A stretch of DNA of 61,212 nt from a virus (Duplodnaviria; Caudoviricetes): IMG/VR virus record IMGVR_UViG_3300030060_003743, positions 1-61,212 of that record, one strand, 5' to 3'. A model generated the notes under the pieces. That model ran no database searches. It was not told the DNA's origin and worked only from the letters and a program-made list of their open reading frames with translations. This document shows, piece after piece, positions 5,180 through 56,620 of this stretch (its first letter is position 1; the number at the start of each line of letters is the position of its first letter). A program made the translations under genes and the position numbers.

Positions 5180-5905
5180 TCAGGAGCTCGTTTTTTTCAT
5201 GATTTTGCGAAAATCTTGCATTTTCTCCAACCATTTGTCTTCATACTCTTTTAACATGGTTTCGCTCATAACGTACTTTTGAAACACTAAATCTTTGGTG
5301 CATATTAAAATTAGACCTTGACGTATGTCTCCATACTGTAATTTGTGAGCCAAAGAGTAAGCACCAATTTGGTAAAAATAATCTTCAATCCATTCTTCTC
5401 TTTTAGGTTTATTGCTTTGTTTAAAATCTGCAATTGTAGGCTTACTCGCATATTCACATATTAAATCTGAAGAGCCAGCCCATTGATCTTTATATGCTAA
5501 ACTTACTTCAGTTCCATAAACTCTAGAAAGATCTTGTAAATTTTCAATAATGGTATGAGCCATCATTCTTGGAAGACTTCCCTCTTTAGATAAATTAAAA
5601 TACCCCTGACCATTCATATACTGTTCTAAAACATAGTGCATTTCTGTGCCTCTAGTTGCAGCCTGGCTCGTGATTCGTGCGGCTTCTTCATGGCCTATTC
5701 GATCTCGCCACCTTTGAAGTCCTTGTTTTTTTTCTTTAGACTGTGTGGTGGTTAATATAGTAGTAACACTAGGAACTTTTTTGCCATCCACATCGTAAGT
5801 TCTAAAATTGTCGCCATCGTCTCTACTGTAAAAACCGTAATTAAACTTGTTATCTTTTATAAAATCACTTACCGTAAAAACTTGGTCATTTCTCGTCAAT
5901 ATCAT
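5180..5905 (-). CDS. PD-(D/E)XK exonuclease
   Basis: VPSVTTIL, RGTEMH, AGSSD...IADFKQS, YFYQIGAY motifs. Confidence 0.85.
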   Translation of the reverse strand: MILTRNDQVFTVSDFIKDNKFNYGFYSRDDGDNFRTYDVDGKKVPSVTTILTTTQSKEKKQGLQRWRDRIGHEEAARITSQAATRGTEMHYVLEQYMNGQGYFNLSKEGSLPRMMAHTIIENLQDLSRVYGTEVSLAYKDQWAGSSDLICEYASKPTIADFKQSNKPKREEWIEDYFYQIGAYSLAHKLQYGDIRQGLILICTKDLVFQKYVMSETMLKEYEDKWLEKMQDFRKIMKKTSS

Positions 5906-6644
5906 TTTTTATATCTTTATTATATTTTATAATTTCTGCGATTATACTAAGGTCCACCTCATAATACAAAGCGGAGCATCTTATGGCTTCAACGTCTTTT
6001 GGAAAACAAGGTCCGCCAAAACCCCGATCTTTAGTGACAAGCGTGTGGCTGGCATTTATTCTTTTATCTAAAGCAACACCTTTACGAACATTATCAAAAT
6101 CTATGCCTGACGCTTTACAAAAATCATAAACTTGATTGAAAAAACTAACTTTTGTCGCTAAAAAAGCGTTTCTAAAATATTTAACAGCTATTAGTTCTTC
6201 TGGGTCTGCTGTTATTATGTGAGGGCAACTAGGAAATATTTCTTTAAACAATTTAATCCAAAACGATACTTCTTTTCCTCCAATCATTATGTGTTCTTGT
6301 TGGCGAATGTCATCCAAAGCTTTGTCTGCTCTTAAAAATTCAGGAGAGTATGCAATTTTTTTGTCAAACTTATCATTAATATATGACCAGCCCTGCACTG
6401 ATATGGTGCTTTTAATTAATATAGGCACATCAGGGCAATCTTCTAAAACATCTGTTACGTGAAGCATGTTACAAGCACCGGCAAGACCTTTTGGTGTTGG
6501 CACGCAAATAACAACAGCGTCTACATCCGAACTAATTTTTTTGTCGTAATGTTTTGGATCTATTATTTGAGTTTCGTGATAGTTTTGTAAAACAGCAGCG
6601 TAGGCTCTACCTACGTGACCGTAACCAGCTATGCCTATTTTCAT
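5886..6644 (-). CDS. ugd: UDP-glucose/GDP-mannose dehydrogenase family protein, C-terminally short
   Basis: GYGHVG Rossmann motif, ICVPTP, IKSTI, SPEFL, KYFRNAFLATK, GFGGPCFPKD (catalytic Cys). Only 252 aa. Confidence 0.85.
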   Translation of the reverse strand: MKIGIAGYGHVGRAYAAVLQNYHETQIIDPKHYDKKISSDVDAVVICVPTPKGLAGACNMLHVTDVLEDCPDVPILIKSTISVQGWSYINDKFDKKIAYSPEFLRADKALDDIRQQEHIMIGGKEVSFWIKLFKEIFPSCPHIITADPEELIAVKYFRNAFLATKVSFFNQVYDFCKASGIDFDNVRKGVALDKRINASHTLVTKDRGFGGPCFPKDVEAIRCSALYYEVDLSIIAEIIKYNKDIKNDIDEK

Positions 6645-17477: not shown

Positions 17478-18290
17478 TTATTCTGTAGCGCTATCAACAC
17501 CATCACAGGGTTTCATTTCATCCCACAAACGTCCTGTATATTGAAATTCACCAACGTGTGTAATGTAATCCATAATGTAACAGTAACATTTACCACCGGT
17601 GTTACGCCACAACCTACAAAAAGCAAAGTCTTCACCTAAAAAACGTTTGTTTTTTGCATCATAATAAGTGTCAAAAAAGTTATACAGATAAGGTTTTTTC
17701 TGTAATTTACCGTCAATTAAACTTTCTTGGTGTATCTCCATGTCAGGATATGACTTTATCAAAGTATCAAAAACTTCTCGTTTAATAAGCATACAGCCAG
17801 TGGGTGCATGGGTGACTTCAATTACACCCTCACCCTCTATCTTAATGGCCTCACTATCTTCTAATCGTAAGGGATAAGTATTACAATTGACATGTGCTTC
17901 GTGAGCCGTGGTCACATCACCATGTAATATTTTTTGAATGAGCCTATCAAACTTAATATCTTTTAAAGGATAAGGCACAGAGATGACGTCCTTGTCAGCC
18001 TCAAGCATACTCCATATGCTGTCAGAGGAAAACGCAATATCTGAATCTATAAAAAGCATGTGTGACATTTCGCTTTTTAAAAAAGAAGCAGCACATAAGT
18101 TTCTGCCCTGCGTTACCAGTGATGATTTTATCATTTCAAAAACAACTTTAATACCTTTTTCCATGCAGTTTTTTTGAAACTCCAACATACTTTGTGTGTA
18201 ATGTATGGATACTTCACTATGGACAGGTGTGGCCACATATATACTTATGTTTTTGTCTTCAAGCCATAAAGGTTTACTTGGGTCTTGCAT
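17478..18290 (-). CDS. GT-A fold glycosyltransferase-like protein
   Basis: VATP, SLVTQGRN, LFIDSDI (DxD), TGCMLIKREVF, GEDFAFC motifs. Confidence 0.8.
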   Translation of the reverse strand: MQDPSKPLWLEDKNISIYVATPVHSEVSIHYTQSMLEFQKNCMEKGIKVVFEMIKSSLVTQGRNLCAASFLKSEMSHMLFIDSDIAFSSDSIWSMLEADKDVISVPYPLKDIKFDRLIQKILHGDVTTAHEAHVNCNTYPLRLEDSEAIKIEGEGVIEVTHAPTGCMLIKREVFDTLIKSYPDMEIHQESLIDGKLQKKPYLYNFFDTYYDAKNKRFLGEDFAFCRLWRNTGGKCYCYIMDYITHVGEFQYTGRLWDEMKPCDGVDSATE

Positions 18291-19209
18291 CTAAAGCACC
18301 CTCTAAAAAAATAATCCACTGCACTGCTTTTTTGTCCCAGTGGTAAAACCTTTTTGTGTACTCTTGTTGTAAGCACAAATGATCATATATAAAATCTTCA
18401 TGCAAATGATCCATGCCAACTTTGATTGCATGAGCAAAGTTTTGCGCTAGTTTAGTGTAATTGTCAGTGTAATTCACATATATAGGAAATTCAGCACAAG
18501 TTTCAAACAACGCGCCATAGTTTGTTACCACACAATATAGACCTGCAGCCATGGCTTCTAAAGCTGATATGCAAGATGTTTCTTGCCAGATGCTAGGGTA
18601 AGCAAACATATGATAATCACTTAATTTGTCCAAAATAACCTCGTTTGGTTGATATCCGATGTAGTTAACATTTGGTAATATTTTTGCTTGATCAATTAAT
18701 TTTGACCAATCGTCTTGATTATTTTTGTTGAATTCTTCCCCGTATATCTCACAACTACTGTATACATCTAATGTAATATTTTCATCTTTTAAATATTGCA
18801 TGGCTAACAAAAGCACATTTAACCCACGCCAAGGAGTTGGTTGAAACACTAATCGTAGTGTCTCGCCTTTTTTGTACCTTCGTAAGTGTGGAAAGTGAGT
18901 AACGCCATTTTTTATAACATGACACTTTTCTGTTGGTACGTCATAAAGCATTCTATACTTTTCATAATTCCAATGTGAATTGAACACATACCAATCGTAA
19001 ACGTCATGGTTTCTTTTATCTTCGAAAAAAGGTTTTATATTAGGCTGGTCGTAACTATTTTTTTGCCATAAGATATTAATCTTGTTTTTATCTACGGGCA
19101 CTTTACCCGGCACTGATGTACAGATTTGAAAGTTGTCTAACAGGTTTTTATCTACATACTTATGTAAAAACTCTAATTGTAGTTCTGTGCCACCTTTAGG
19201 CTCAATCAT
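18274..19209 (-). CDS. GT-B fold (GT4-like) glycosyltransferase
   Basis: GGTE, VFNSHW, VIKNG, PWRGL, YPSIWQETSCISALEAMAAG (Ex7E). Start placed after SD GGAGA. Confidence 0.85.
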   Translation of the reverse strand: MIEPKGGTELQLEFLHKYVDKNLLDNFQICTSVPGKVPVDKNKINILWQKNSYDQPNIKPFFEDKRNHDVYDWYVFNSHWNYEKYRMLYDVPTEKCHVIKNGVTHFPHLRRYKKGETLRLVFQPTPWRGLNVLLLAMQYLKDENITLDVYSSCEIYGEEFNKNNQDDWSKLIDQAKILPNVNYIGYQPNEVILDKLSDYHMFAYPSIWQETSCISALEAMAAGLYCVVTNYGALFETCAEFPIYVNYTDNYTKLAQNFAHAIKVGMDHLHEDFIYDHLCLQQEYTKRFYHWDKKAVQWIIFLEGALDARPK

Positions 19210-19393
19210 TCGTCTCCCCAAACAAATCTAATTTTGGAACTATAATAGTAACATCACGTTGAATATCTTCTTCTTTAGTAGAAGTGTTCGGATCTTTTAT
19301 GTCCTCTTGAGCTTGTTCCTCTGAGGCATATTCAAGACCTGACTTTTTGTTTGTGATTTTAGTTTTTGATTCACAATCTATAGTAATCGTCAT
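19202..19393 (-). CDS. Small conserved hypothetical protein
   Basis: Fills the operon gap and overlaps the next gene. Confidence 0.6.
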   Translation of the reverse strand: MTITIDCESKTKITNKKSGLEYASEEQAQEDIKDPNTSTKEEDIQRDVTIIVPKLDLFGETND

Positions 19394-22074: not shown

Positions 22075-22665
22075 CTAAGTATATTGCTTACCGTTCATCC
22101 AAGCAACCACTGCGTGTCGTTGCCCTTCATACACTGTTTCGCACCCGTGCAAGGTCCATGAGGGAAATATAATAATATTACCTTTTTCTTGTGGTGGAAA
22201 AAACTTTTCACCAACACCATTAACAAGGTAAAAAAGACCACCTTTAAAATTATCGTTTAACACGGTAAGACAAGTAAGTTTACGCACATAGTCTTGATTT
22301 GTTTTAAACGAATAGTCAACATGTGTTGTGTATTTACCGTTACGCTTATATATTAAGTATTCCGACTGGCTACAGTAACTTAGATCATATTTCCAATTTT
22401 GAAAATTAGCATCTAAAGATGCAGTAACTAAATACGATGTAATTCCAGTATATGTAGGCAGTTGTATTGTTTTAACATCTCTAGTTTTCTTCTTAACTTT
22501 TTCATCATAATTTTTTTGTTTTTTATTTTCTATTTCAACTTTTGCTGGTTCAGCTTTTTTTGAACTCCACTTATTGTAATAATAATCACAAACATCGTGA
22601 GGTATACCTTCATCTTTTTGATAAATCCAACAAGGCACATGTAAATTATCTTCTTTGTCTTTCAT
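22075..22665 (-). CDS. 2OG-Fe(II) oxygenase (P4Hc/PiuC-like)
   Basis: HVD, RKLT, FKGG, IFPS..LH...V..G.R.AVVAW motifs. Confidence 0.88.
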   Translation of the reverse strand: MKDKEDNLHVPCWIYQKDEGIPHDVCDYYYNKWSSKKAEPAKVEIENKKQKNYDEKVKKKTRDVKTIQLPTYTGITSYLVTASLDANFQNWKYDLSYCSQSEYLIYKRNGKYTTHVDYSFKTNQDYVRKLTCLTVLNDNFKGGLFYLVNGVGEKFFPPQEKGNIIIFPSWTLHGCETVYEGQRHAVVAWMNGKQYT

Positions 22666-22673
22666 ATTTTCTC

Positions 22674-23357
22674 CTAAAATGCAGGTACTACAATATCATC
22701 ACTAAGATCTTCTTTAGCAACATTAACAGCTTCCCAATTAAAAAAATGTGTAATGCAGTATCGACCATCACCAAATGTAGCATCTTCAAACATTTTTACT
22801 GCAAAAACTTGATGCTCTAAATAACTTGGAAACATAACCATGCGGTTTGACAAACACTTTATGTTTTGGTTTGATTGTGTAAATTTAAAATTGCCGCCTT
22901 TATATTTTTTTGGTTCTTTGTGTAGCCATATAACAAATGTAAATTGTGTGCCATCGGAGTGTGGTTTATATTCTTGATCTTCATCGTAATAACTTACCAT
23001 AGTTGCATCGGTGTTAGTGCCAGCATAATTATCGTGATGTAAAGGCATAGCCTTTTTAACAAGGTCTTTAAACTCTTGTGACCTTTGTTTATACAAACAA
23101 TTTAAAATATGTGAGAACTGTTTACCTTTCGGTGTGTACAAATCCCAAAGGTAAAATCTAAATGAATTTGATTTTGATACACCTTTTTCATCATGGGCCA
23201 CCACAGTATTCTCTGCTTTTTCTATTGTGGCAACATCACGACTTGTGTAAAAATCTATTTCTTTCCATACATTAATAAGCTCTTCTTCAGTATACCAGTT
23301 GTCTATTTGTAAGTATGGATATAAAGGGTCTTTACCTATTTTAATTTTCCAAGACAT
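22674..23357 (-). CDS. 2OG-Fe(II) oxygenase
   Basis: YKPHSD, YKGGNF, MFPSYLEHQV, GRYCIT motifs. Confidence 0.88.
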   Translation of the reverse strand: MSWKIKIGKDPLYPYLQIDNWYTEEELINVWKEIDFYTSRDVATIEKAENTVVAHDEKGVSKSNSFRFYLWDLYTPKGKQFSHILNCLYKQRSQEFKDLVKKAMPLHHDNYAGTNTDATMVSYYDEDQEYKPHSDGTQFTFVIWLHKEPKKYKGGNFKFTQSNQNIKCLSNRMVMFPSYLEHQVFAVKMFEDATFGDGRYCITHFFNWEAVNVAKEDLSDDIVVPAF

Positions 23358-24097
23358 TCTAATTTTTTTAACAAGTTTATCAAAAACTTAATGTGGTCTA
23401 TTTCATACCATTTAACTGCAATTGTCAAATTGCTAGGATTTGCGTGATGATTATTGTGATATGGGTGCATCAAAATAAAAGGTAAATGAATATTTCGTGA
23501 ATTATCATTAGTTTCAAAGTTTTTATATCCAAACCTATGTCCAAAAACATTAACCCAAGAAGCGGCATGTAATGAATATACTGCGGGTAAAGCAAACAGG
23601 TATAACGCTAGTTTAATATTTACTAATATAAAGAACATAACTACGCTCCAATAAATAACATAGTAGTATTTTTTTACAATTACATGGGATTTATCTTTTA
23701 TTAATTTTTTAATTAATTTTGAGCTAATTACAGAATTTTTTTCTGTACCAATCCAAAACCAAGTTCGCCAACCATTTTCAGCAGGATGCGGGTCTCCGTC
23801 AACGTCAGAATATTTATGATGTGTAGAGTGATTTGCTGCCCATACCATGGGTGGTCCTTGTAAGCCAAAGATAGCACATGCGTTTAAAAACAATTCTAAT
23901 GGTCTAGCGACTGTAAAAGCACCATGTGACAAATATCTATGACAATATCCCTCTATGCCTAACTTTGCAAAAAACACAATACCTAACAAAGTAAACCATA
24001 AATAAGTTAAATCCCATAAATAAAAAAGACCTATTATAGCAAATAGGTGCATGAGACCTTGTGATACTAATAATTTGTGATGATCTGTTAAATTCAT
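23336..24097 (-). CDS. Membrane fatty acid desaturase (delta-9, DesC/Ole1-like)
   Basis: Three His boxes HRYLSH, HSTHH (then YSD..GDPH) and HNNHH; VNVFGH..GY.NF...D.SRN; several TM segments. Confidence 0.9.
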   Translation of the reverse strand: MNLTDHHKLLVSQGLMHLFAIIGLFYLWDLTYLWFTLLGIVFFAKLGIEGYCHRYLSHGAFTVARPLELFLNACAIFGLQGPPMVWAANHSTHHKYSDVDGDPHPAENGWRTWFWIGTEKNSVISSKLIKKLIKDKSHVIVKKYYYVIYWSVVMFFILVNIKLALYLFALPAVYSLHAASWVNVFGHRFGYKNFETNDNSRNIHLPFILMHPYHNNHHANPSNLTIAVKWYEIDHIKFLINLLKKLECLGKLK

Positions 24098-46778: not shown

Positions 46779-48254
46779 TTAATAGTACCTATATTCTTTA
46801 GGGGGACGATCTTCATCGTCTCTATAGTCTGAGTATAACTCAACAAAGTTTCCTTGGCGATACCTTAGTATTGCTTGAGTCGTGGAATCAACATAGTCAT
46901 CGTTAGCGCCATGCGGAAAAGCCGCACATTCATCAATCACATCTTCCGCAAATTTTTCACCATATGGGTACCACACTGCACCACTTTCAAAGACGGGTGC
47001 ACAACTGTTCACTCTCGTATGTTTGTCATTCCCTCTGGTTGGGGTAAATGGCACCACTGGAATACCCATGCGCCTAAACTCTTGGGTCAATGGTTCACCA
47101 GATGCTTTTTGCTCGACGATGATTGTTTCTGGTTCCCAGTATTTGTGAGCGTCCAACGCCACTGCCTTAAGTTCTGGAAAATCGTATTTACCACGAATCG
47201 CATCTAACAAAATAATATTCGGCGCACCACCCTCTTCAGGAAAAAATACACCCCATGTGGTAATCGCAGAATAGTCTGCCGTTTCTTTTTTTGAAAAGGC
47301 TGTATCATAACTTTGAATAACATGTTGTAGCATGGGCAAACCTTCTTTCTCCCAAGGTCGCCACCAATCTCGTTTAAGTATCGCACCCTCTTCTGAGGTT
47401 GGTTCTTGCATATATTGTGCTGACCAGTTTCGAATTGGAATACTTGCTTTAATTTTTTCTAATTCTTCTAGTTCCCAATACTCAGGCCAAACTGGGTTCC
47501 CTGAGTCGAGAATCGCTGGAAAAGAAACTTGTCGCCAAGTGTCCGCTTTGGGTTCGGTTTGAGCCTTCAACAGTCTACCTGTTAAATCGTCCTCGGCCCA
47601 ACGAGTCATGACCACCAAAATCGAACCGCCAGGTTGCAAACGTTGTCGGGGTCCTGAAGTGTACCATTCGTACGCACGCTCCATGGCAGTATCAGACATA
47701 GAATCTTGTTCCGTGTGTGGATCATCAATAATCAGTAAGTCCGCACCACGACCCGTGATGGACGAACCAACACCCGCAGCATAGTATTCACCACCTTGAT
47801 TAGTTTCCCACCTACCTTTGGCTTTAGAGTCCTCACGCAGTTTCACATCGCCAAATATTTGTTTGTATTCTGGTGAATCAATAATGTTACGAACCTTAGC
47901 TCCGAACCTTGCCGCAAGTTCTGTATTGTGCGAGACCTGCATAATTTTTAATTTTGGATACTTACCAATAATCCAAGCAGGGTAGTATACAGAAGCAAAT
48001 TCAGATTTAGTATGTCTAGGGGGCATGTTGATAATGAGCCTCCCTTTTCTTTGATCTGCTATATCTGTAAATTCTTTTGCAATAATCTGATGATGACCCC
48101 ATTCTTCAGGCTTTTTTGATTTTCTACAAATAAAATCAGGCCATACCTCTTGCACAAAAGCTAAAAAATTATCCTGACAAAGTTTAATATGCTGTATCCA
48201 AAGTTTTTCTACTTGGAGCCTTAATTGTTCGGTGGTCATTAGTTCCGTTTGCAT
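46779..48254 (-). CDS. terL: Terminase large subunit
   Basis: INMPPRHTKS (Walker A), GRGADLLIIDDP, VMTRW, SYDTA, NDDYVDS motifs. Confidence 0.95.
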   Translation of the reverse strand: MQTELMTTEQLRLQVEKLWIQHIKLCQDNFLAFVQEVWPDFICRKSKKPEEWGHHQIIAKEFTDIADQRKGRLIINMPPRHTKSEFASVYYPAWIIGKYPKLKIMQVSHNTELAARFGAKVRNIIDSPEYKQIFGDVKLREDSKAKGRWETNQGGEYYAAGVGSSITGRGADLLIIDDPHTEQDSMSDTAMERAYEWYTSGPRQRLQPGGSILVVMTRWAEDDLTGRLLKAQTEPKADTWRQVSFPAILDSGNPVWPEYWELEELEKIKASIPIRNWSAQYMQEPTSEEGAILKRDWWRPWEKEGLPMLQHVIQSYDTAFSKKETADYSAITTWGVFFPEEGGAPNIILLDAIRGKYDFPELKAVALDAHKYWEPETIIVEQKASGEPLTQEFRRMGIPVVPFTPTRGNDKHTRVNSCAPVFESGAVWYPYGEKFAEDVIDECAAFPHGANDDYVDSTTQAILRYRQGNFVELYSDYRDDEDRPPKEYRYY

Positions 48255-48368
48255 TCAAGTATTATAACCATAACTAGACGTTTTACCAGTGTGTGCGTCT
48301 ATTCGACTTGCCAGCTTTACTACGGCGTGTGTGTGTCGGGCGTTTTCGTTATCGGGAAAATCCAAAAA

Positions 48369-48400
48369 ACAAAAAAAAGGCTCATTCGAAAATGAGCCTT
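48369..48400 (-). terminator. Intrinsic terminator upstream of terL (UUCG loop)
   Basis: Minus strand AAGGCTCATT-TTCG-AATGAGCCTT followed by a T-run. Confidence 0.85.
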
Positions 48401-48458
48401 GCAGAAATGGTGGTTATTCGGGGATATTGAATAACCACCCTGCCAAAATCAATTAGCT

Positions 48459-48617
48459 TTATTGATGTTTATCCTCTAATTTTTCCATTAGTTTTTTTTC
48501 TAATCCTTCGTAAAAGTTTTCCCATATATTTCTAGGTACACTTGAAAGACGCATATCCTTTTTAGCCTTTGCAATATATCTTTTTATTTTCTTTTTTTCT
48601 TTTTCGTATTCGTTCAT
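48459..48617 (-). CDS. 52-aa charged protein (not in ORF track)
   Basis: MNEYEKEKKKIKRYIAKAKKDMRL...; SD GAGGGGG; ATGA overlap with the upstream gene. Confidence 0.65.
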   Translation of the reverse strand: MNEYEKEKKKIKRYIAKAKKDMRLSSVPRNIWENFYEGLEKKLMEKLEDKHQ

Positions 48618-48925
48618 TCTTCCCCCTCAACAATTATGTCATTATTGGTATTTTCTTGCGTGATGAGTAACTTATCTTTTATAGGTTTTAATATCATCAT
48701 TATATGTAACATCAAGTCTTGCGATTGATTAGTACCCTGATACTTAATGCAATTTTCAGTTACTATTTTTTCAAGTAATCCAAAAAGTGTTATGTAGTCT
48801 AATTGGTCATTTTCAATTACACCTTGAATTGCTTGTTCAATATCCTGTGTATTTCTTAATTGACTTTCACAAAATTCGACAAGGTCAAACCCATTGTTTG
48901 TATTTCTATCATTATTATTTGGCAT
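48614..48925 (-). CDS. Hypothetical early protein
   Basis: Own promoter and AACATTGGG leader. Confidence 0.65.
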   Translation of the reverse strand: MPNNNDRNTNNGFDLVEFCESQLRNTQDIEQAIQGVIENDQLDYITLFGLLEKIVTENCIKYQGTNQSQDLMLHIMMILKPIKDKLLITQENTNNDIIVEGEE

Positions 48926-48965
48926 TTTATTTTCCCAATGTTGATTAATATTATCTAACCTCTTA

Positions 48966-48993
48966 ATTATGGACTTATTAATATTAATTGCAA
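48966..48993 (-). promoter_or_regulatory. Sigma70-like promoter
   Basis: TTGCAA-N16-CATAAT upstream of the 48925 start. Confidence 0.55.
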
Positions 48994-49129
48994 TAGTTAA
49001 CTGTAATTAAATTTCAACACGAATGGACGTTTTCCCGCACCGAGATTTTGATGACGTTTTCCCGACCCGTACCGGTTTTCTTTAATAGGCGAAAATTTAA
49101 AAAAAACGTCAATGATCTCGGGAAATCTT

Positions 49130-49191
49130 AAAAAAACGAGCTCCTTATTTGCGATATTTCAACTTTCGGTATACTAGACTACCTCGAAAAT
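49130..49191. repeat. 62-bp dispersed repeat (copies at 49694-49755 and partial at 50336-50372)
   Basis: AAAAAAACGAGCT(C/G)CTTATTTGCGATATTTCAACTTTCGGTATACTAGACTACCT(C/T)GAAAAT; 2 mismatches between the full copies. Confidence 0.9.
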
Positions 49192-49283
49192 TTTAAGTTT
49201 TAACACGAATGAACTCCCGACCCGCACCGGTTTTCTTTAATAACCACAAGCCACAAAAAAAACGTAATCGATATCGGGAAAAT

Positions 49284-49637
49284 CTAATATGACGTTCTTT
49301 TTATTCTACCTATAAAGGGTGCGATTTTCTTGTTCACAAAATCTAAAACATCTTGAAAATTTTCTAATTGTTCACACGTTTTAGAATGACTGTAATTGTT
49401 AACCTCCATAATCGTAAATCTAGGACTATCTAAAAAACCTTGAGAAACTGCTTCCCGGTCTTTTAAATTTTTCTCATCTATCCAGATTTGCCACCCCTTG
49501 AAAGCGAACGAGGGACAAGCGTCATTATGCCATGATGAATTAATCCACTGATCCGGCAAATCGATATCAGCAAAAGTTTGTTCCCACCCTTCAAGCATAC
49601 TACAGCTTTTCCATTTATTGTCTTGTACTTCTAGCAT
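49284..49637 (-). CDS. Hypothetical early protein
   Basis: Start re-placed at MLEVQ after SD GGAGG; SW.NDACPSF motif. Confidence 0.7.
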   Translation of the reverse strand: MLEVQDNKWKSCSMLEGWEQTFADIDLPDQWINSSWHNDACPSFAFKGWQIWIDEKNLKDREAVSQGFLDSPRFTIMEVNNYSHSKTCEQLENFQDVLDFVNKKIAPFIGRIKRTSY

Positions 49638-49665
49638 TATTATACCTCCAATGTTGTGATAGCTT

Positions 49666-49695
49666 ATTATATACATATAATGCGATATAAAGCAA
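49666..49695 (-). promoter_or_regulatory. Sigma70-like promoter
   Basis: TTGCTT-N18-TATAAT. Confidence 0.6.
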
Positions 49696-49867
49696 AAAAA
49701 CGAGCTGCTTATTTGCGATATTTCAACTTTCGGTATACTAGACTACCTTGAAAATACAGGGTTTTAGGGCTTCAAAAGTTACGATCTAAATTTTCCGGAC
49801 CTGAGACCGGGCAGGCTGCTTTTAATGCGAAAAAATCATAAAAAAACGTCAACTTTATCGGGAAATT

Positions 49868-49963
49868 TCAAAAAAAATCGGAAATGACAACAAAGATGAG
49901 TAAAAAGATAATCCATAGACGAGGGAAAACTAGCCCGAGGGCTAGTAAAATTAAAATTTCCAA
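49868..49963 (-). CDS. 31-aa hydrophobic peptide (TTG start, not in ORF track)
   Basis: MEILILLALGLVFPRLWIIFLLIFVVISDFF; SD AGGGG; similar to 56620-56718. Overlaps a terminator-like hairpin. Confidence 0.5.
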   Translation of the reverse strand: MEILILLALGLVFPRLWIIFLLIFVVISDFF

Positions 49964-49976
49964 GTATTTTCCCCTA

Positions 49977-50261
49977 TTAAATAAACATTTTGCCAAAATT
50001 GGAATTTAAAAGTTCTTTGACGAGGTATCTAGTGACCTTAATTCCACATTTAGTTTGATAGTTATAAGAGCCAATGATGTTTGCTACTATGGTAAACGAA
50101 TATTCCTTCATGAGATTAGAAATTTGATTTGATATATCAACTTCTTCGCACAAAAATTCATAAACTTTCATTTGCTCATGGCTTTTAAAACCACCTTTTT
50201 TTGCGATTGCGTCTAAACTAGCTTTATATTCTTTCGAATAATGTCTTACTGTATATGGCAT
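49977..50261 (-). CDS. Hypothetical early protein
   Basis: Start re-placed at MPYTV after SD AGGGGG. Confidence 0.65.
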   Translation of the reverse strand: MPYTVRHYSKEYKASLDAIAKKGGFKSHEQMKVYEFLCEEVDISNQISNLMKEYSFTIVANIIGSYNYQTKCGIKVTRYLVKELLNSNFGKMFI

Positions 50262-50295
50262 AGTATTTCCCCCTAATGTTTTTAAAATACACCCC

Positions 50296-50324
50296 ATTTT
50301 ATGCTTTTTTTGCCAAAAAGTAAA
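50296..50324 (-). promoter_or_regulatory. Sigma70-like promoter
   Basis: TTTACT-N17-TAAAAT. Confidence 0.45.
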
Positions 50325-50414
50325 ATTTTTGACGTCCTTATTTGCGATATTTCAACTTTCAAGGTACTAGACCATGCCGATTTTTTTAATTTGACAAGAC
50401 AAATTACCGGTTGT

Positions 50415-50566
50415 GCAGCGCACGGTTCTGGAAACTTAAACATGAAATCCAGTAAAAAAGGCGACAACCATGTCGGGAATTTCCACAAAGACTGTCCAAA
50501 CCTCATCTACGGCCGTGAAAAAAGAAACGCAGCGCACGGGTCTGGAAACTTAAACATGAAATCCAG
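50415..50566. repeat. 38-bp direct repeat pair
   Basis: GCAGCGCACGG(T/G)TCTGGAAACTTAAACATGAAATCCAG at 50415-50452 and 50529-50566. Confidence 0.9.
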
Positions 50567-50742
50567 CAAAGAAGGCGTGGATCGTAACGGGAGTTTTCCC
50601 GATCCGCGGAACCTGGATGGCTTCTTTATATGCAAATCAATAATTTATAGACGTTTCTAGCATCGGGAAATCCTAGTCCAGGCGCACGGCTTCAGGTCAT
50701 CGCTGAAAACCTTGTACCTAGTGCATTGTGCCAAGAGACTTA

Positions 50743-51141
50743 TCATTTTCCCGCACCGCGCGCCGCCCGATGTATTAACAAGATTAATTTTTCATCAAAG
50801 ACGTCAGCCGCATCGGGAAATTCTGCAATTAGATGCACGGCTCTCGAATCATGGACTTCTAGAAGTTTGAGAGCGCACTGCGAGGCATGAAAATTTAAGA
50901 TAAAAGACTTTCCACCAACTTGTCTATGCTTAATGTGCCAATTAATTTGAAACTTTGAAAGGTTGCAATTCTTAACCTCATTGGCTTTTAATTCTAACCA
51001 AAAAGAACTGCCATCAATACACCCATAGATGTCAGGTATTCCATTGATTGTAGAGGATTCTATGCGAGTTAAAAACCAGCTTTTTTGTGTCTTTTGAATC
51101 AGGTTAAGTCTTTTCCAAATTTTTGATTCTGTTATCTTCAT
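50743..51141 (-). CDS. VRR-NUC / Holliday-junction resolvase-like nuclease
   Basis: TES..W, RIE, GIPD, WLELK, LS..QI.W.......GG.SFIL motifs. Confidence 0.85.
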   Translation of the reverse strand: MKITESKIWKRLNLIQKTQKSWFLTRIESSTINGIPDIYGCIDGSSFWLELKANEVKNCNLSKFQINWHIKHRQVGGKSFILNFHASQCALKLLEVHDSRAVHLIAEFPDAADVFDEKLILLIHRAARGAGK

Positions 51142-51146
51142 TCTAC

Positions 51147-51177
51147 AAAAAAAACCCCTGCAAGTATGAACAGGGGT
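51147..51177 (-). terminator. Intrinsic terminator-like hairpin
   Basis: Minus strand ACCCCTG-N10-CAGGGGT followed by a T-run, downstream of the 52634-51222 operon. Confidence 0.6.
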
Positions 51178-51221
51178 ATAAGTGTTGAGCTTTTTGTTAG
51201 CTCGAGGATATGACTTAAATA

Positions 51222-51473
51222 CTACTCGCCAACTAAGAAATCTTCAAGTTTTTTTTGACTGGCAGATTCTATGACTTGGTAAAAATCTTCCGTATCAAAA
51301 TACGGACTGCTATGAATCCATTGGGTATTGTCTACCATAATACGCAAATCTTGTGCATTAAATCCATAATCTATGTACTGCCTTACAGCTTGATTAAAGT
51401 TTCCATGAATTATACTTTCGCAAATTTCATCAAACTGTTTTTGCGTTCTATATTCCTTTTTAGTTTTTTCCAT
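51222..51473 (-). CDS. Hypothetical early protein
   Basis: SD GAGGAG; in operon. Confidence 0.65.
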   Translation of the reverse strand: MEKTKKEYRTQKQFDEICESIIHGNFNQAVRQYIDYGFNAQDLRIMVDNTQWIHSSPYFDTEDFYQVIESASQKKLEDFLVGE

Positions 51474-51485
51474 TTAACTCTCCTC

Positions 51486-51836
51486 TTATTGTTCACATTC
51501 ACATGAAATTCTTGAATGTATATCGTCGTAAGCTGATGATAAATTATAGTACCCTTTACCCTCACACATTTTACATTCTATTATTTCTTTTTTTGTTTCA
51601 ATAGTAGCCATGTCATTAGGTTTGCGATAGCAGTAACCATAATTAATAGCTCTTAAAATATAATATTTACCTTTTGGTAAAACCTTTACGACATCATCAA
51701 AATCAGATTCGTTAGCGCCTATGCTTAAAGCTATTGAATCTAACTTTTCAGCATCTACTAGTACTAAATCACCCGATACGGCTTCGTCATGTTCCCCAAA
51801 ATTGTCTATAAATGTTTCGTGTTCTTTATCCATCAT
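51486..51836 (-). CDS. Hypothetical protein with C-terminal CxxCxGxG/CxC motif
   Basis: CKMCEGKG...CEC; SD GGGGGG. Confidence 0.65.
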   Translation of the reverse strand: MMDKEHETFIDNFGEHDEAVSGDLVLVDAEKLDSIALSIGANESDFDDVVKVLPKGKYYILRAINYGYCYRKPNDMATIETKKEIIECKMCEGKGYYNLSSAYDDIHSRISCECEQ

Positions 51837-51842
51837 TCCCCC

Positions 51843-52634
51843 CTATGCTATGCAGAATCCACCAGACATTTTACAAAACTGAATAAAATCTTGAACGTTT
51901 TCCACATCAAAATTAAAATCAGCTTGTGGCTGGTATTGGTCAAGTAAAGAAAACAACTTTTTCTTATCTTCACTTTTAAGTTTATCTTCAAATTGTTCAA
52001 ACGTTATTCTAATACCTAACGAATTATCAGCAATTTTATATTCTTGATTCATTTCATACTTACGAAATAGCTTTTCAATTTCAGGCATCACCTCTTGATG
52101 ATTATATTCTTTTGCTTTTTTAGTCATCTTTGCCCATTTTATTGCCTCTTTTTCAGTATGACCATGTTTAATTAGTGCTTCTAAAGAACTGGATATTCTT
52201 AAAACAACATCCTCTTTGACTTCATAAAAATCATTAGAATGCCAAGCATCTCTGTCTTCTTCTTTAATCTCTCCTGTGAATTTTCCTATGTACTCGGCTA
52301 GGGGATGCCAATACCAAACATTATTATAGAAATGAAAACCTTCGTTTTCATTTATAACTTTAGACATCATTTTTTTAATATCGTGTTGTGTTTGTTCAGG
52401 CAAACCACTAAGTTTTTTTACTATATTATCAAGTTCTTTTTTCATGTCTTCATCTTTTAAAGGTGTTCCATGAAATAGCTCTACGAGTGAAATTTGGCGA
52501 CCAGTTTTATTGTATGCAGTAAAAGCATTAAAGTTTATGTCGTGGTTTTCGCATTTGTCTAAAAAAGGTTTCCAAACTTTTCCTAAATGTTCCTGTGAAT
52601 AAGCAGGACTAATTCCAAATAAATCAAAACCCAT
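51843..52634 (-). CDS. Hypothetical early protein
   Basis: MGFDLFG start, F..NVWYWHPL motif, ends F..FC..SGGF.I; own promoter. Confidence 0.7.
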   Translation of the reverse strand: MGFDLFGISPAYSQEHLGKVWKPFLDKCENHDINFNAFTAYNKTGRQISLVELFHGTPLKDEDMKKELDNIVKKLSGLPEQTQHDIKKMMSKVINENEGFHFYNNVWYWHPLAEYIGKFTGEIKEEDRDAWHSNDFYEVKEDVVLRISSSLEALIKHGHTEKEAIKWAKMTKKAKEYNHQEVMPEIEKLFRKYEMNQEYKIADNSLGIRITFEQFEDKLKSEDKKKLFSLLDQYQPQADFNFDVENVQDFIQFCKMSGGFCIA

Positions 52635-52668
52635 AATTATCTCCCAATGTTGATTAATGTGTACCCTT

Positions 52669-52696
52669 ATAATAGCAAATATTCAAGCATATACAA
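52669..52696 (-). promoter_or_regulatory. Sigma70-like promoter with extended -10
   Basis: TTGTAT-N16-TATTAT, with TG.n before the -10. Confidence 0.55.
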
Positions 52697-52760
52697 GAAA
52701 TTAATACTTTTTTAAAACGCTTGACTTTCAAGTTTCCCGAGCGCGGGACCTGGTTTTTTC

Positions 52761-52882
52761 CAATAATCTAGTAATTTAAAAAAAGACGTAATTAATGTCG
52801 GGAAATCTCACCACTGAGTCCCGGATCCGGGCTATCAATAATCTAGTAATTTAAAAAAAGACGTAATTAATGTCGGGAAATC
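52761..52882. repeat. Perfect 47-bp direct repeat, 75-bp period
   Basis: CAATAATCTAGTAATTTAAAAAAAGACGTAATTAATGTCGGGAAATC at 52761-52807 and 52836-52882. Confidence 0.95.
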
Positions 52883-52888
52883 CCACAG

Positions 52889-52917
52889 TTGACATACCCT
52901 ATTTAATCCTATGTAAT
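52889..52917 (+). promoter_or_regulatory. Sigma70-like promoter, probably leaderless
   Basis: TTGACA-N17-TGTAAT, 7 nt before ATG at 52925; no SD. Confidence 0.65.
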
Positions 52918-52924
52918 TATATTT

Positions 52925-53236
52925 ATGGAACAAAAAATAGACAAGTTTGGTAATTTAACCATACCTCTTTTTGACATAATTGATCAAAAAGACGCTGATA
53001 AATTTTATTATTTTTACATGGGCTTAGATAGGTCAATAAAAAAAGTAATAGAAAACGCTTTTTATCAGGCGTACACAAAAAATCTTTTAGATAGAAAAGA
53101 ACCCCATATCTTACATCGTGAGGAAAACGGCATCACATATATTGAGGTTGATCCTAGTGACATAATAAGAAATATAGAGATTATCAAAAAAATTATAGCC
53201 ACTAATGAAGTCGTACAAGAAGATGAAAACGAGTAA
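52925..53236 (+). CDS. Hypothetical protein
   Basis: 103-aa ORF directly behind a consensus promoter. Confidence 0.65.
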   Translation: MEQKIDKFGNLTIPLFDIIDQKDADKFYYFYMGLDRSIKKVIENAFYQAYTKNLLDRKEPHILHREENGITYIEVDPSDIIRNIEIIKKIIATNEVVQEDENE

Positions 53237-53474
53237 ACATCCTCTGTATATAGTTGTGTGGAAAGACCACACGTCTAACTCTTCCTGGCAAACTGAAGAA
53301 GAAATAAAAAAAGAAAAATATATATTAGCTTATAGTATAGGCTATTTACTTCATCAAGATAAAGAATGTGTTAAATTATGTAATACTTATACCTCTGACG
53401 AAGGGTACGGAGGTTTAGATCTTATTTTAAAATCTTGTATTGTTGAGATGTACGAAATAGAGATAATAGACTAG
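53205..53474 (+). CDS. Conserved small phage protein
   Basis: V.WKDH....SW, SIGYL, I.KSCI pattern. Confidence 0.7.
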   Translation: MKSYKKMKTSKHPLYIVVWKDHTSNSSWQTEEEIKKEKYILAYSIGYLLHQDKECVKLCNTYTSDEGYGGLDLILKSCIVEMYEIEIID

Positions 53475-53971
53475 TCTTTAACCTCACCTTGAATTATGAT
53501 TGTGTTAGCTCCAACTTTATCTTCAAGCTCTTTTAGTCTAGTTTCGAGCTGATCTCTAGACATTCCCTCTAAAGTGCTATGTGTTATTTCTTTCTTATCA
53601 ACATATTGACCGGCTAACTGACCAGACCTGAACTCTGCATTTATTGCTGCAGTATACTGACCCTTTTGCTCACTCCCATCTCTCAACCTTTCTAAAGTTT
53701 TATATCTTCTAAGTTTGTCTTTTTCATATTTGGCTTGTTCTTCACTCAACCTTATCTCTAAATACCTACACACATGCGGATTTGCCTCAGGACTAGTCAA
53801 CTTACTGGCCAAAGCCATAGCAGAATTATCACTCTTTGAACTGTAACCAGCTTTAATTAAGGCGTCTTTTTTAGATATAGTTCCCCAGTTTTCAACCAAA
53901 ATATCTACAAAAGCTTTTTGTTTTTCTGTCAAATCTTGAGAAGATCTGACTGTTTTTGGTTTTTGTGGCAT
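53471..53971 (-). CDS. terS: Terminase small subunit
   Basis: LTEKQKAFV, A..AGYS, AS.L HTH-like N-terminus; AAINAE...G.LAG.Y. Confidence 0.8.
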   Translation of the reverse strand: MPQKPKTVRSSQDLTEKQKAFVDILVENWGTISKKDALIKAGYSSKSDNSAMALASKLTSPEANPHVCRYLEIRLSEEQAKYEKDKLRRYKTLERLRDGSEQKGQYTAAINAEFRSGQLAGQYVDKKEITHSTLEGMSRDQLETRLKELEDKVGANTIIIQGEVKD

Positions 53972-54048: not shown

Positions 54049-54150
54049 TTTTTCCTATTTTATAGGAAGTTTTCCTAGTTTTTTCCTAGTTTTTTCCTAG
54101 TTTAAATTCAACATAAGCCTATTGGTATGCTATTTTTCCTATTTTCCTAA
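54049..54150. repeat. TTCCTA(G) short-repeat array in AT-rich intergenic DNA
   Basis: TTCCTA at 54052, 54072, 54083, 54094, 54136 and 54144, plus inverted TAGGAA at 54063. Confidence 0.8.
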
Positions 54151-54988: not shown

Positions 54989-55182
54989 GAGTCATTTATA
55001 TCATCTTCTTCAACAATATCCAATAACTCATAGCCAGTGTGCCCAGTTCCATCGCATTTTGGACACAACATAGTACCTTCTCTAATCTCCACCACATTAC
55101 TTGGCAGTGGCGAATGATCCGTGTTGCGTGTACCATTTCCCGAGCAAGCCTCACATATTACATATTTTTTTACAATCGCCAT
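54967..55182 (-). CDS. DnaJ-type zinc-finger protein
   Basis: CEACSGNG and CPKCDGTG. Confidence 0.75.
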   Translation of the reverse strand: MAIVKKYVICEACSGNGTRNTDHSPLPSNVVEIREGTMLCPKCDGTGHTGYELLDIVEEDDINDSCRQRKT

Positions 55183-55190
55183 TTTTTCTC

Positions 55191-55400
55191 CTATAAAACT
55201 TTTTCATTAAGATTGTCCAACAAACTCTTCTTAAAAGCTTCCTGGTCAACACCCTCACTGATAGATAGTTTCTCTACCTCTTCATCTAGCATTTTAGTAA
55301 TTTGTGCGGCTGGCCCACGATAATTGTGTTTACTTACCGCTTTCAATAACTTATGATCTTCAACCTTAACAGCTACACTTTTCCACTTAGTTGCATCCAT
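55191..55400 (-). CDS. Ribbon-helix-helix-like DNA-binding protein
   Basis: KWKSVAV strand followed by two helices; SD GGAG. Confidence 0.6.
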   Translation of the reverse strand: MDATKWKSVAVKVEDHKLLKAVSKHNYRGPAAQITKMLDEEVEKLSISEGVDQEAFKKSLLDNLNEKVL

Positions 55401-55419: not shown

Positions 55420-56265
55420 TTAATCATGACAAAAACAAGTTTCTTGGTTTGGTTCGTCATCGTCAAATAGTTCGCCTTGGTTTCTTGTATTATCTAACAA
55501 AGTTTGGTAGTTAGCACGATCTTTTCTAAAAAAATGCACCATGTTATCACTACCTATTTTCTTGCCTTCTTGTTCGATCCACCAATCTGCAAGCTCTGGT
55601 TTTATCTTCATCATATTTTGAATTGTTTTAGCTCCTTTTAAGAAACATAAATCACAATTACCATATGGTGTTTTACCGCCGTTGTTGATTAGTCGTAAAT
55701 CAAAATCATTATTTGTCCAAAAATTAAAAACGTCTTTGACCGTAGCTTGTGCTTCATACAATGGTGCCTCGGTATCCCAACGTTCTTTTGCGTTAGCTCT
55801 CTCTAACCTGGCCACTCGGTGTGGCTCATCATATCTTAACCCAATATAATTGTTCCAATGTTCAAAGCCCAACTCTTGCATTAAAAATGCTTTCATGGGT
55901 TTTATTTTTAAATAACTCGTACAGTACCGTGTCACGGGGTTCGGTAAAAATTGTTTACTATCAATGAGTTGTCCATAAGGTTCCCCGTTTCTCGATGCAG
56001 TTTCATACGTAACCACACGATACTTATGTTCTTGCTCCAGGTCACATTCAATCCAGTAAATTGGTACGTTCCAACGCGTTGAACATTCGTTTACAAAATC
56101 TAAAGTTTCTGGCATCTCTTTGCCAGTGTTAGAGAACACGACCGGTAAATCGTCTGGCAACTTACCATCATACTCGTCTAAAATTTTACGTAACATGTAA
56201 CCGCTTGTCCTACCTCCTGAAAAACTAATACAACCAGGTGTCTCTACCCTATATGGACTTTTCAT
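55420..56265 (-). CDS. PAPS-reductase-family (PP-loop) protein
   Basis: ISFSGGRTS, FSNTGKE, R.CT..LKIKP, IGLRYDE..R, GNCDLCFLK. Start after SD GGGAG. Confidence 0.85.
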   Translation of the reverse strand: MKSPYRVETPGCISFSGGRTSGYMLRKILDEYDGKLPDDLPVVFSNTGKEMPETLDFVNECSTRWNVPIYWIECDLEQEHKYRVVTYETASRNGEPYGQLIDSKQFLPNPVTRYCTSYLKIKPMKAFLMQELGFEHWNNYIGLRYDEPHRVARLERANAKERWDTEAPLYEAQATVKDVFNFWTNNDFDLRLINNGGKTPYGNCDLCFLKGAKTIQNMMKIKPELADWWIEQEGKKIGSDNMVHFFRKDRANYQTLLDNTRNQGELFDDDEPNQETCFCHD

Positions 56266-56620
56266 TTGATCTCCCTTGCAAGTTGCAAATGACTCTCGTA
56301 ATGCCGTCATCGTCTGTCACATATTCTACCAAATCATGCAGCTTATAGTTAGTGTTATATGCCGGTTCATTATTAACCAAACCGATACCTTTTTTTCGGT
56401 CGCCTTTTATTATTTTAACCCACATTTTTTCTAAAACTTTTTGACCATTACGAACCGTAACAGAGTCATCAATAGGAAAATAACAATAGATAAAATCTTT
56501 AGGTACATCAGGGTTATTTTTTACCGTCAAATACATTTCAACACCGTGCTCTTCACAGGTGTATACAATATTATCTTCCGCCTCTTCTAAAAGTTTTTTT
56601 AATTTTCCTTCTTTTACCAT
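56249..56620 (-). CDS. Hypothetical protein (E.MWV.I...G...NEP motif, DUF2314-like)
   Basis: EKMWVKI..G....GIGLVNNEP; start by TAATG coupling. Confidence 0.55.
   Translation of the reverse strand: MVKEGKLKKLLEEAEDNIVYTCEEHGVEMYLTVKNNPDVPKDFIYCYFPIDDSVTVRNGQKVLEKMWVKIIKGDRKKGIGLVNNEPAYNTNYKLHDLVEYVTDDDGITRVICNLQGRSNEKSI

Follow-up and report, generated by a model that had tools for sequence, protein, structure and literature searches.

The 61,212-bp viral record IMGVR_UViG_3300030060_003743, which was analysed as one window, carries ten copies of a short bipartite DNA site between its small and large terminase genes (terS and terL), and most of these copies form the head of a longer repeated unit of about 70 bp. 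The units are real and strand-specific, and they are confined to a block of predicted early genes that is hypervariable among relatives. Natural variants of this region differ by whole cassettes and by the number of units, with breakpoints in repeated modules. The reading that we favour, with middling confidence, is that the units are linkers between early-gene cassettes with regulatory and recombination roles, similar to the PeSL elements of T4-type myoviruses. They are best filed as a new form of the PeSL kind, found in a major marine phage group.

The window covers the viral record in full, with an estimated completeness of 98% and no end repeats. Judged by protein identity to Pelagibacter phage HTVC023P (74% for the large terminase subunit, TerL, and 69% for the family-A DNA polymerase), the phage is an HTVC023P-type pelagiphage, marine and infecting SAR11, and at least 595 related stretches are found in IMG/VR. 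TerL is encoded at 46779-48254 (phrog_38, E 5e-116) and the small subunit, TerS, at 53471-53971 (phrog_51, E 6.9e-9; Pfam Terminase_2 at 25.5 bits, just below the cut-off of 26.1). Nearly all genes of the window lie on the - strand, so the repeated site is to be read on that strand. Genes and motifs were counted over 80-81 related loci (labelled L), with a survey of tandem motifs over 34 of them, and populations were compared through assembled contigs from marine studies (labelled X2, X5 and X6). The X5 contigs leave parts of the region uncovered, and these gaps carry no information. Among 50,697 phage records, no DNA nearly identical to the window was found.

On the + strand the site reads RCGT-N8-TCGGGAAA, which corresponds to TTTCCCGA-N8-ACGY on the coding (-) strand, where it is followed by a T-run in most copies. 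The pattern RCGTNNNNNNNNTCGGGAAA has eight exact matches, all on the + strand (48340, 49106, 49262, 49846, 50651, 50801, 52786 and 52861). In shuffled sequence the mean was 0.01 and none of 100 shuffles reached eight; over the whole record there were eight forward matches, no reverse matches and no matches to a reversed control pattern. All exact copies lie within 48340-52880, or approximately 7% of the genome. The remaining two heads are variants, one at 50461 with two mismatches and one at 50575-50594 with three (the latter read directly from the sequence). When up to two mismatches were allowed, 13 matches were obtained against 4.05 expected. Eleven of these fall in 48340-52880, including two that are left arms on the - strand, and the other two are at 44725 and 55929. 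By itself, TCGGGAAA occurs 12 times (1.08 expected): as eight right arms (+), as three perfect left arms (-) at 49058, 50595 and 52733 and as one stray copy at 55136. The initial annotation of this DNA had described ten co-oriented sites between terL and terS and had seen them only in this region; both descriptions are confirmed, with eight exact sites and two variants at the positions claimed. It had also named misassembly as a concern. Because contigs from other marine studies cover the units, the region is not misassembled: X5 record 17 is identical to the window over 47978-48829, and X6 record 27 follows it over 48405-52791 except in three stretches that are replaced or skipped.

The spacer was said to vary in sequence and never in length, and it is indeed 8 nt in all ten copies, with a weak consensus. 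In the eight exact copies, twelve fixed positions flank this free spacer. On the coding strand, a unit opens with the head, which is followed by a T-run, then by an A/T box and then by a GC-rich block whose short dyad varies in sequence; it often ends with an inverted copy of the head core. The A/T box is TATTAAAG-like and begins 37-42 nt from the start of the head. The inverted core is present in six units, and the positions of these left arms and the resulting unit lengths (68-76 bp) had been given correctly. Numbering the units U1 to U10 by increasing position, the arm complementary to the head matches at 8/8 positions in three units, at 7/8 in three (49213, 49792 and 50747) and not above chance in four (U1, U5, U6 and U10). 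The head is unchanged even where the arm is absent or carries a mismatch without compensation, which favours direct reading of the head over reading by way of pairing. On this ground the earlier proposal that the site binds a protein is reasonable, although no binder was found among the proteins examined.

Read along the coding strand, units come behind the end of a gene or a terminator and ahead of the promoter-like stretches that belong to the following cassette. U10 (52820-52880, -; repeat family D4) contains a 12-bp GC palindrome, lacks an inverted arm and abuts the promoter-like stretch of two + strand genes. In tandem with it is U9 (52733-52805, -), a full unit with a perfect arm that lies upstream of the first early gene. 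U8 to U5 stand in a row after a nuclease gene. U8 (50747-50820, -) is a full unit directly after the conserved domain of this gene, with the open reading frame (ORF) reading through it, and the related locus L064 is arranged alike; U7 (50595-50670, -) is a full unit with a perfect arm; and U6 (50529-50594, -) and U5 (50415-50480, -), both of repeat family D5, are variant units with the heads ACTCCCGT-N8-ACGC and ATTCCCGA-N8-TCGC, respectively. U5 has the sole head in which a small hairpin is followed by the T-run. U4 (49792-49865, -), a full unit whose 7/8 arm has an uncompensated C-C mismatch, comes after the hairpin at 49930-45 that follows gene 49977-50261. U3 (49213-49281, -), also full and with a 7/8 arm, starts 3 nt past the stop codon of gene 49284-49676. 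U2 (49058-49125, -) is a full 68-bp unit made up of head, T-run, TATTAAAG box, GC block and perfect inverted arm; it is upstream of gene 48614-48925, and a tail-like half unit (ACGTTTTCCCGC type, repeat family D7; 49022-49042, -) lies just downstream of it. U1 (48340-48359, -) is a head only, TTTCCCGA-N8-ACGC without a complementary arm, between the last early-gene terminator and terL. L064 has an orthologous U1 head upstream of its terL.

Other features of the gaps fit around the units. A second intergenic repeat, the D2 module, is present in three copies (49130-49202, 49694-49766 and 50323-50395, -) between units and promoter-like stretches, and a D2-like stretch is found in L012 upstream of the gene for the MGFD protein described below. 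Promoter-like matches between units and gene starts are at 48993-48966, 50324-50296 and 52663-52636. Of two terminator-like hairpins of the intrinsic type, one (48377-48400, -) marks the end of the early block, a short way ahead of U1 on the coding strand, and the second is at 51154-51177 (-). On the opposite strand, a promoter-like stretch, TTGACA ... TGTAATTAT (by eye; 52889-52927, +), begins 9 nt after the last head, as it does in L064. It would serve the two + strand genes at 52925-53474, which converge on terS with an overlap of 4 nt.

The early block itself (48459-52634, -) comprises eight genes: 51843-52634, 51486-51836, 51222-51473, 50842-51141, 49977-50261, 49284-49637, 48614-48925 and 48459-48617. 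Six of these are small ORFs with few or no relatives, matching between 0 and 9 of 81 loci. The only two widely kept genes encode the nuclease (48/81 loci) and the MGFD protein (30/81). The timing of the block is transferred from phage HTVC027P. In the part of the RNA-seq study of that phage that is used here, gp35, gp37, gp38 and gp39, directly upstream of terL, are Early; the supplementary rows for gp35 and gp38 show very high values of transcripts per million; terS, gp31 and terL are Late; and gp30, gp33 and gp34, likewise between terS and terL, fall into two extra clusters (PMC12753301). In the same study, the phage type is described as carrying no RNA polymerase of its own (PMC12753301), and neither a sigma factor nor an RNA polymerase was found among the ORFs of this genome scanned against PHROG and Pfam. 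Based on synteny with HTVC027P, we infer that the block genes of the present phage are early. As a separate observation, HTVC027P (L090) has a GC-rich non-coding stretch of approximately 400 nt (6140-6540) that has GAAGCTTG-type repeats at its start and is situated ahead of the early operon gp35-39, next to the oddly timed gp34; this stretch could be a structured RNA.

Contigs from natural populations show the loss and exchange of whole cassettes. In an X6 contig, 49190-49809, which includes U3, gene 49284-49676 and the second D2 copy, is replaced by 49 nt, and the ends of this replacement are in the first D2 copy and U4. An X2 contig joins 52737 to 52838, reducing U9 and U10 to one unit. Contig pieces repeatedly end at 48996, 49846, 50444, 52737 and 52838-58, which are unit edges. 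Gene 49284-49676 is also missing from L064, where homology to the window is mainly in regulatory stretches and homology blocks end at or near U4, U8, U9 and U10. Among six relatives with heads of the GTCCCG type, 72 of 188 homology-block ends are in units, compared to 43.3 expected. The initial annotation had suggested looking for gene-content breakpoints at the units, and homology-block ends do show a modest enrichment there.

The 20-nt motif is absent from all related loci examined (0/80). What the relatives have in its place differs by lineage. At orthologous positions, among them the one before terL and the one immediately behind the nuclease gene, L064 carries TTTCCCGA-N8-ACAC. Upstream of terL, the most repeated GC-containing 8-mers are, in 24 of 34 loci, permuted forms of a tandem motif of 6-9 nt that is specific to the lineage, the types being TTTCCCG, TTCCCG, GTCCCG(C), GTTCTC, TYCTCGTT and ATCTCTACC; HTVC023P has its own repeats containing ATCTTGAG. 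For 11 loci with tandem motifs, 138 of 141 sense copies lie at most 4.5 kb upstream of terL and antisense copies total 16, but because the motifs were chosen from that region the count is partly circular and only the absence elsewhere carries weight. After each array in the relatives come a T-run or TATA-like box and a block with a GC-rich dyad, often with the complement of the array behind them. In L009, a unit comes after a canonical terminator and the distance from head to TATA box varies by 16-29 nt. In L031, TTGACA-17-TATAAT (12 of 12) and TTGACA-16-TATATT stand downstream of units, and two head arrays are hairpin-plus-T-run terminators. When an nhmmer profile of seven units was run against 81 loci and the window, it recovered only the seven input units and one weak match in L064 (E 0.0014). 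As the same architecture is found with other motifs in relatives, the sites are one lineage's version of a feature common to the phage type; judged from sequence, every lineage keeps the architecture and its place and rewrites the short head motif. The earlier statement that the site matches no named family is true of the exact motif, but it does not extend to this shared feature.

The likeness to PeSLs is both structural and evolutionary. In the portions of the PeSL literature used here, these elements are short repeated composite motifs in the intergenic gaps of a hyperplastic region of early ORFans in T4-type myoviruses (PMC2839356; PMC4122927). So far as those portions describe them, PeSLs share with the units the orientation of the genes and a GC-rich dyad, their link with early promoters of the sigma-70 type and terminators has a putative counterpart in the units, and in both cases indels or replacements between close relatives end in the motifs. 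Another trait counted for PeSLs is the formation of mini-circles through recombination between flanking motifs. There are also clear differences. In a PeSL, the element combines a consensus sigma-70 promoter with a G/C stem-loop terminator, and both activities are reported there to have been shown by reporter assays, whereas the 70-bp unit is upstream of promoter-like hexamers and does not contain them. What is conserved in the unit is the bipartite head around its free spacer, in whose place relatives have tandem C-rich arrays, and this is not a sigma-70 element; the head in this phage is not a hairpin terminator, and its sequence changes by lineage. Finally, the host, the phage family (pelagiphage podovirus) and the sequences are unrelated to those of PeSLs. 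A term search in the text of pelagiphage papers, which leaves figures and some supplements outside, found no description of elements such as these.

In the proposed mechanism, the units would be cis-regulatory boundary modules of early transcription units, which may insulate or terminate upstream transcripts and act as an upstream element of the next promoter. They would at the same time provide short patches of homology at which the phage's own recombination machinery could swap, delete or duplicate cassettes, as PeSLs do, and the invariant bipartite head would be read by a protein. Boundaries of exchangeable early-gene cassettes, with PeSLs as the comparison, were one of three roles listed in the initial annotation and the one that fits the evidence; for another, loading sites on first-injected DNA, nothing was found in favour or against. 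The boundary role finds support in the hypervariable ORFan block, the early expression of the HTVC027P counterparts, the loss of cassettes and units at repeat modules and the homology-block ends in units.

Several observations weigh against the linker reading. The promoter, terminator and insulator activities of the units are putative. Promoter-like hits are not enriched in the window (23 compared to 24.2 expected) and the distances from unit to promoter vary. Since a hairpin precedes the T-run in only one of ten heads (U5), intrinsic termination of the ordinary kind does not describe the heads; both canonical terminators of the block stand outside the units, and the GC dyads have no T-run after them on the coding strand. 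The source of the timing, HTVC027P, has a TerL that is only 63% identical, and the region upstream of its terL looks different. With respect to recombination, two of the three X6 rearrangements are off the units (a 148-nt replacement at 51493/51642 and a 527-nt insertion at 51827/51842). The breakpoint enrichment is modest, approximately 1.7-fold, and comes from non-independent pairs, and contigs break at repeats for technical reasons as well; for both of these reasons, the breakpoint data are moderate support. Lastly, twelve fixed positions with a free spacer point to sequence-specific recognition. Simple homologous recombination has no need of it, and no cognate head-binding protein was found when the ribbon-helix-helix-like and MGFD proteins were examined.

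The units provide a sequence handle on an early block in which all genes are of unknown function. They mark where early cassettes start and end, and they reveal gains and losses of both cassettes and units in natural populations. If they are PeSL-like, then modular shuffling through regulatory linkers extends past the T4-type myoviruses to a major group of marine podoviruses. If the heads are read by a specific protein, they would expose a new regulator or nuclease with rapidly changing specificity.

The heads could also be operator-like sites at which a sequence-specific regulator, either made by the phage or coinjected with its DNA, switches early transcription. We consider this unlikely as an account of the sites, though it could coexist with a linker role. 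Phi29 p4 and the heptad arrays to which ribbon-helix-helix repressors bind offer parallels. The twelve invariant positions around a free 8-nt spacer in eight copies are as would be expected of an operator, and so is the constancy of the head where the complementary arm is missing or mismatched. The same can be said of the motifs particular to each lineage, in which the second half-site shifts in concert (ACGT here compared to ACAC in L064), and of the position of U1 ahead of terL, a late gene before which the single -10-like hexamer comes with a weak -35 (by eye). However, the heads are approximately 70-160 bp upstream of the promoter-like hexamers and not over them (by eye), the head-to-TATA-box distances in L009 vary by the 16-29 nt given above, the ribbon-helix-helix-like protein does not track head type and the MGFD protein has no match to a DNA-binding fold.

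The two proteins examined as possible head binders are as follows. Gene 55191-55400 (-) encodes a 69-aa protein with a ribbon-helix-helix-like N-terminus (KWKSVAV...) that has homologues in 18 loci and a well conserved strand motif. It was rejected as the reader of the heads, as its predicted DNA-facing strand residues are the same across lineages with different heads. The MGFD family corresponds to the first early gene (51843-52634, -) and is named for its N-terminus, MGFDxYG; its C-terminus is SGGFxIC and its length is approximately 198 aa in relatives. The copy in this phage has a 47-residue insertion, and HTVC023P gp23 is a member of the family. The protein matches no Pfam or NCBIfam family and only viral hypothetical proteins in the Atlas, its AlphaFold model (predicted local distance difference test score, pLDDT, 75.3) has no PDB match at E ≤ 0.001, and a metagenome scan gave three distant matches and no close relatives. 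Without a fold or family match, the MGFD protein is no candidate head binder.

A more speculative proposal, to which we give little weight, takes the nuclease into account. The gene at 50842-51141 (-) is conserved and encodes a PD-(D/E)xK nuclease with a fold similar to Holliday-junction resolvases and VRR-NUC proteins. Its model (pLDDT 83) has Hjc (E 2.9e-4, TM 0.62) and the VRR_NUC structure 4qbn (E 1.1e-3) as best fold matches, and there is a profile match to 4qbo (E 0.014). The ORF continues for approximately 33 codons through U8, both here and in L064, and the conserved nuclease domain is directly followed by the first head not only in this phage but also in L064, L009 and the TTTCCCG lineage. 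Because the nuclease is encoded among the units and the first head comes directly after it, HTVC023P-type phages may run an active cassette exchange, encoded by the phage, in which the head is the code of a fast-evolving protein, the dyads extrude as cruciforms and the resolvase-like nuclease cuts there. Such a system may be integron-like in outcome and not in enzymology, and the nuclease would target recombination to cassette borders. On the other hand, nucleases of this type are common in phages, so the adjacency of head and nuclease may mean nothing. If the proposal were true, the early ORFan block would be a programmed generator of diversity in the pelagiphage group that is the most abundant one known from the ocean.

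It is similarly improbable that the units act as RNA, that is, as long irregular hairpins on a polycistronic early transcript that serve as processing or stabilising sites. The RNase III sites between the early genes of T7 work as hairpins of this kind. The T7 early region, with its tandem early promoters and these RNase III sites, is alike in having repeated cis elements of one orientation between the early genes of a podovirus that uses host RNA polymerase early, and the units here are likewise in one orientation between early genes of a podovirus. The coding strand can be folded with an outer TTTCCCGA/TCGGGAAA stem and an inner U-run/A-run stem. However, the folds of seven units are no better than those of shuffled sequences (z from -2.1 to +0.6 on the coding strand and from -0.9 to 0 on the other), and a scan of the whole window with Rfam 15 gave no matches at the gathering score. 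Furthermore, four of the ten units lack a complementary arm, arm changes are uncompensated, and the outer pairing is not evident in the GTCCCG, GTTCTC and ATCTCTAC lineages (by eye). The units thus differ from the T7 elements in having neither a sigma-70 consensus nor significant RNA structure.

There is a slight chance that a nickase of the phage recognises the heads, so that virion DNA would carry localized single-strand interruptions of the kind found in phiKMV-like, tf and T5 phages. The consensus is strictly one-stranded, with all eight exact copies on the same strand (as first written, the non-coding strand), and a PD-(D/E)xK nuclease gene is found among the units. In the part of the literature on these phages that is cited here, the phiKMV-group site, CGAC-N5-CCTACTCCGG, is likewise bipartite with a fixed free spacer, and site and nickase are proposed to co-evolve (PMC3517423). 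The likeness therefore extends to a strand-specific consensus in a lytic phage and to variation of the site between relatives, which is reported there (PMC3517423). In contrast, the same source places nicks across much of the genome, with 11 of 14 in the left half in tf, and describes them as single sites (PMC3517423). All heads here are in 7% of the genome, inside composite units of the early block; relatives have tandem arrays and not single sites; and the nearest folds of the nuclease are junction resolvases and not known nickases.

The initial annotation had also listed terminase (pac) or genome-end signals, here to be bound by TerS, as a candidate role. We consider this very improbable. 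In favour of it are the location between the two terminase genes and the repeated short boxes, which pac sites typically have, but the ten sites are interleaved with approximately eight genes over 4.5 kb and each unit is tied to a gene boundary. The motif is found in 0 of 80 relatives, including phages with TerL 92-96% and TerS 81-83% identical, and the record has no terminal repeats. Six TAGGAAAA copies just upstream of terS, with counterparts in HTVC023P, L027 and L051, fit the conserved TerS better. This iteron cluster (54050-54149, -) packs its six copies into 100 bp, some of them in the form CTAGGAAAA at a spacing of 11 nt (13 in the window compared to 5.7 expected). Considered by itself, it could be a pac site, an array for a late-promoter activator or an origin, and the ribbon-helix-helix-like protein could bind to it.

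It is equally doubtful that the units are selfish, MITE-like miniature inverted-repeat elements that have multiplied in this genome. Their size (68-76 bp), inverted ends, variable centres and several copies, some of them in tandem and varying in number in nature, would suit such elements. However, target-site duplications are not visible (by eye), no transposase or recombinase was found in PHROG and Pfam scans of the genome ORFs and, elsewhere, the viral or cellular records listed hold only single, chance-level copies. In IMG/VR, the motif plus T-run was found in 48 loci with one match each, and loci with several TTTCCCG copies are unrelated contexts. In 185,579 species genomes it was found in at least 120 stretches; the matches listed are single and in unrelated taxa, none is titled Pelagibacter and, being at chance level, they provide no host link. 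Since architecture, place and orientation are the same across lineages with different sequences, function fits better than parasitism. The units also bring to mind integron attC sites, which are imperfect inverted repeats of approximately 60-140 bp with conserved ends and variable centres, situated in one orientation between small, promoterless-looking cassettes. In contrast to attC, the units lack a GTTRRRY/RYYYAAC core (direct reading), their ends are TTTCCCGA and TCGGGAAA, and four of ten have no second arm. Neither an integron integrase nor any other tyrosine or serine recombinase was found in the same scans of the genome ORFs.

Readings of the unit as a sigma-70, sigma-32, sigma-54 or ECF-type promoter were dropped by eye, as were IHF, CtrA, G-quadruplex, anti-Shine-Dalgarno and Chi-like readings, either because spacing or sequence did not fit or because the reading was not general across lineages.

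Two further observations concern the genes of this phage. Early genes share a leader motif, CAACATTGGRRG, accompanied by strong Shine-Dalgarno-like sequences, at 48926-48955, 49640-49660 and 52636-52665 (-), and the motif is present in L064 as well. Beyond the early block, accessory genes on the - strand (55420-56310, 5886-6644, 18274-19221, 22075-23357 and 23336-24097) include those for a PAPS-reductase-domain protein, a UDP-glucose dehydrogenase-like protein, a glycosyltransferase, two 2OG-Fe(II) oxygenases and a fatty-acid-desaturase-like protein, and the primase of the phage has an AEP (TOTE-type) domain.

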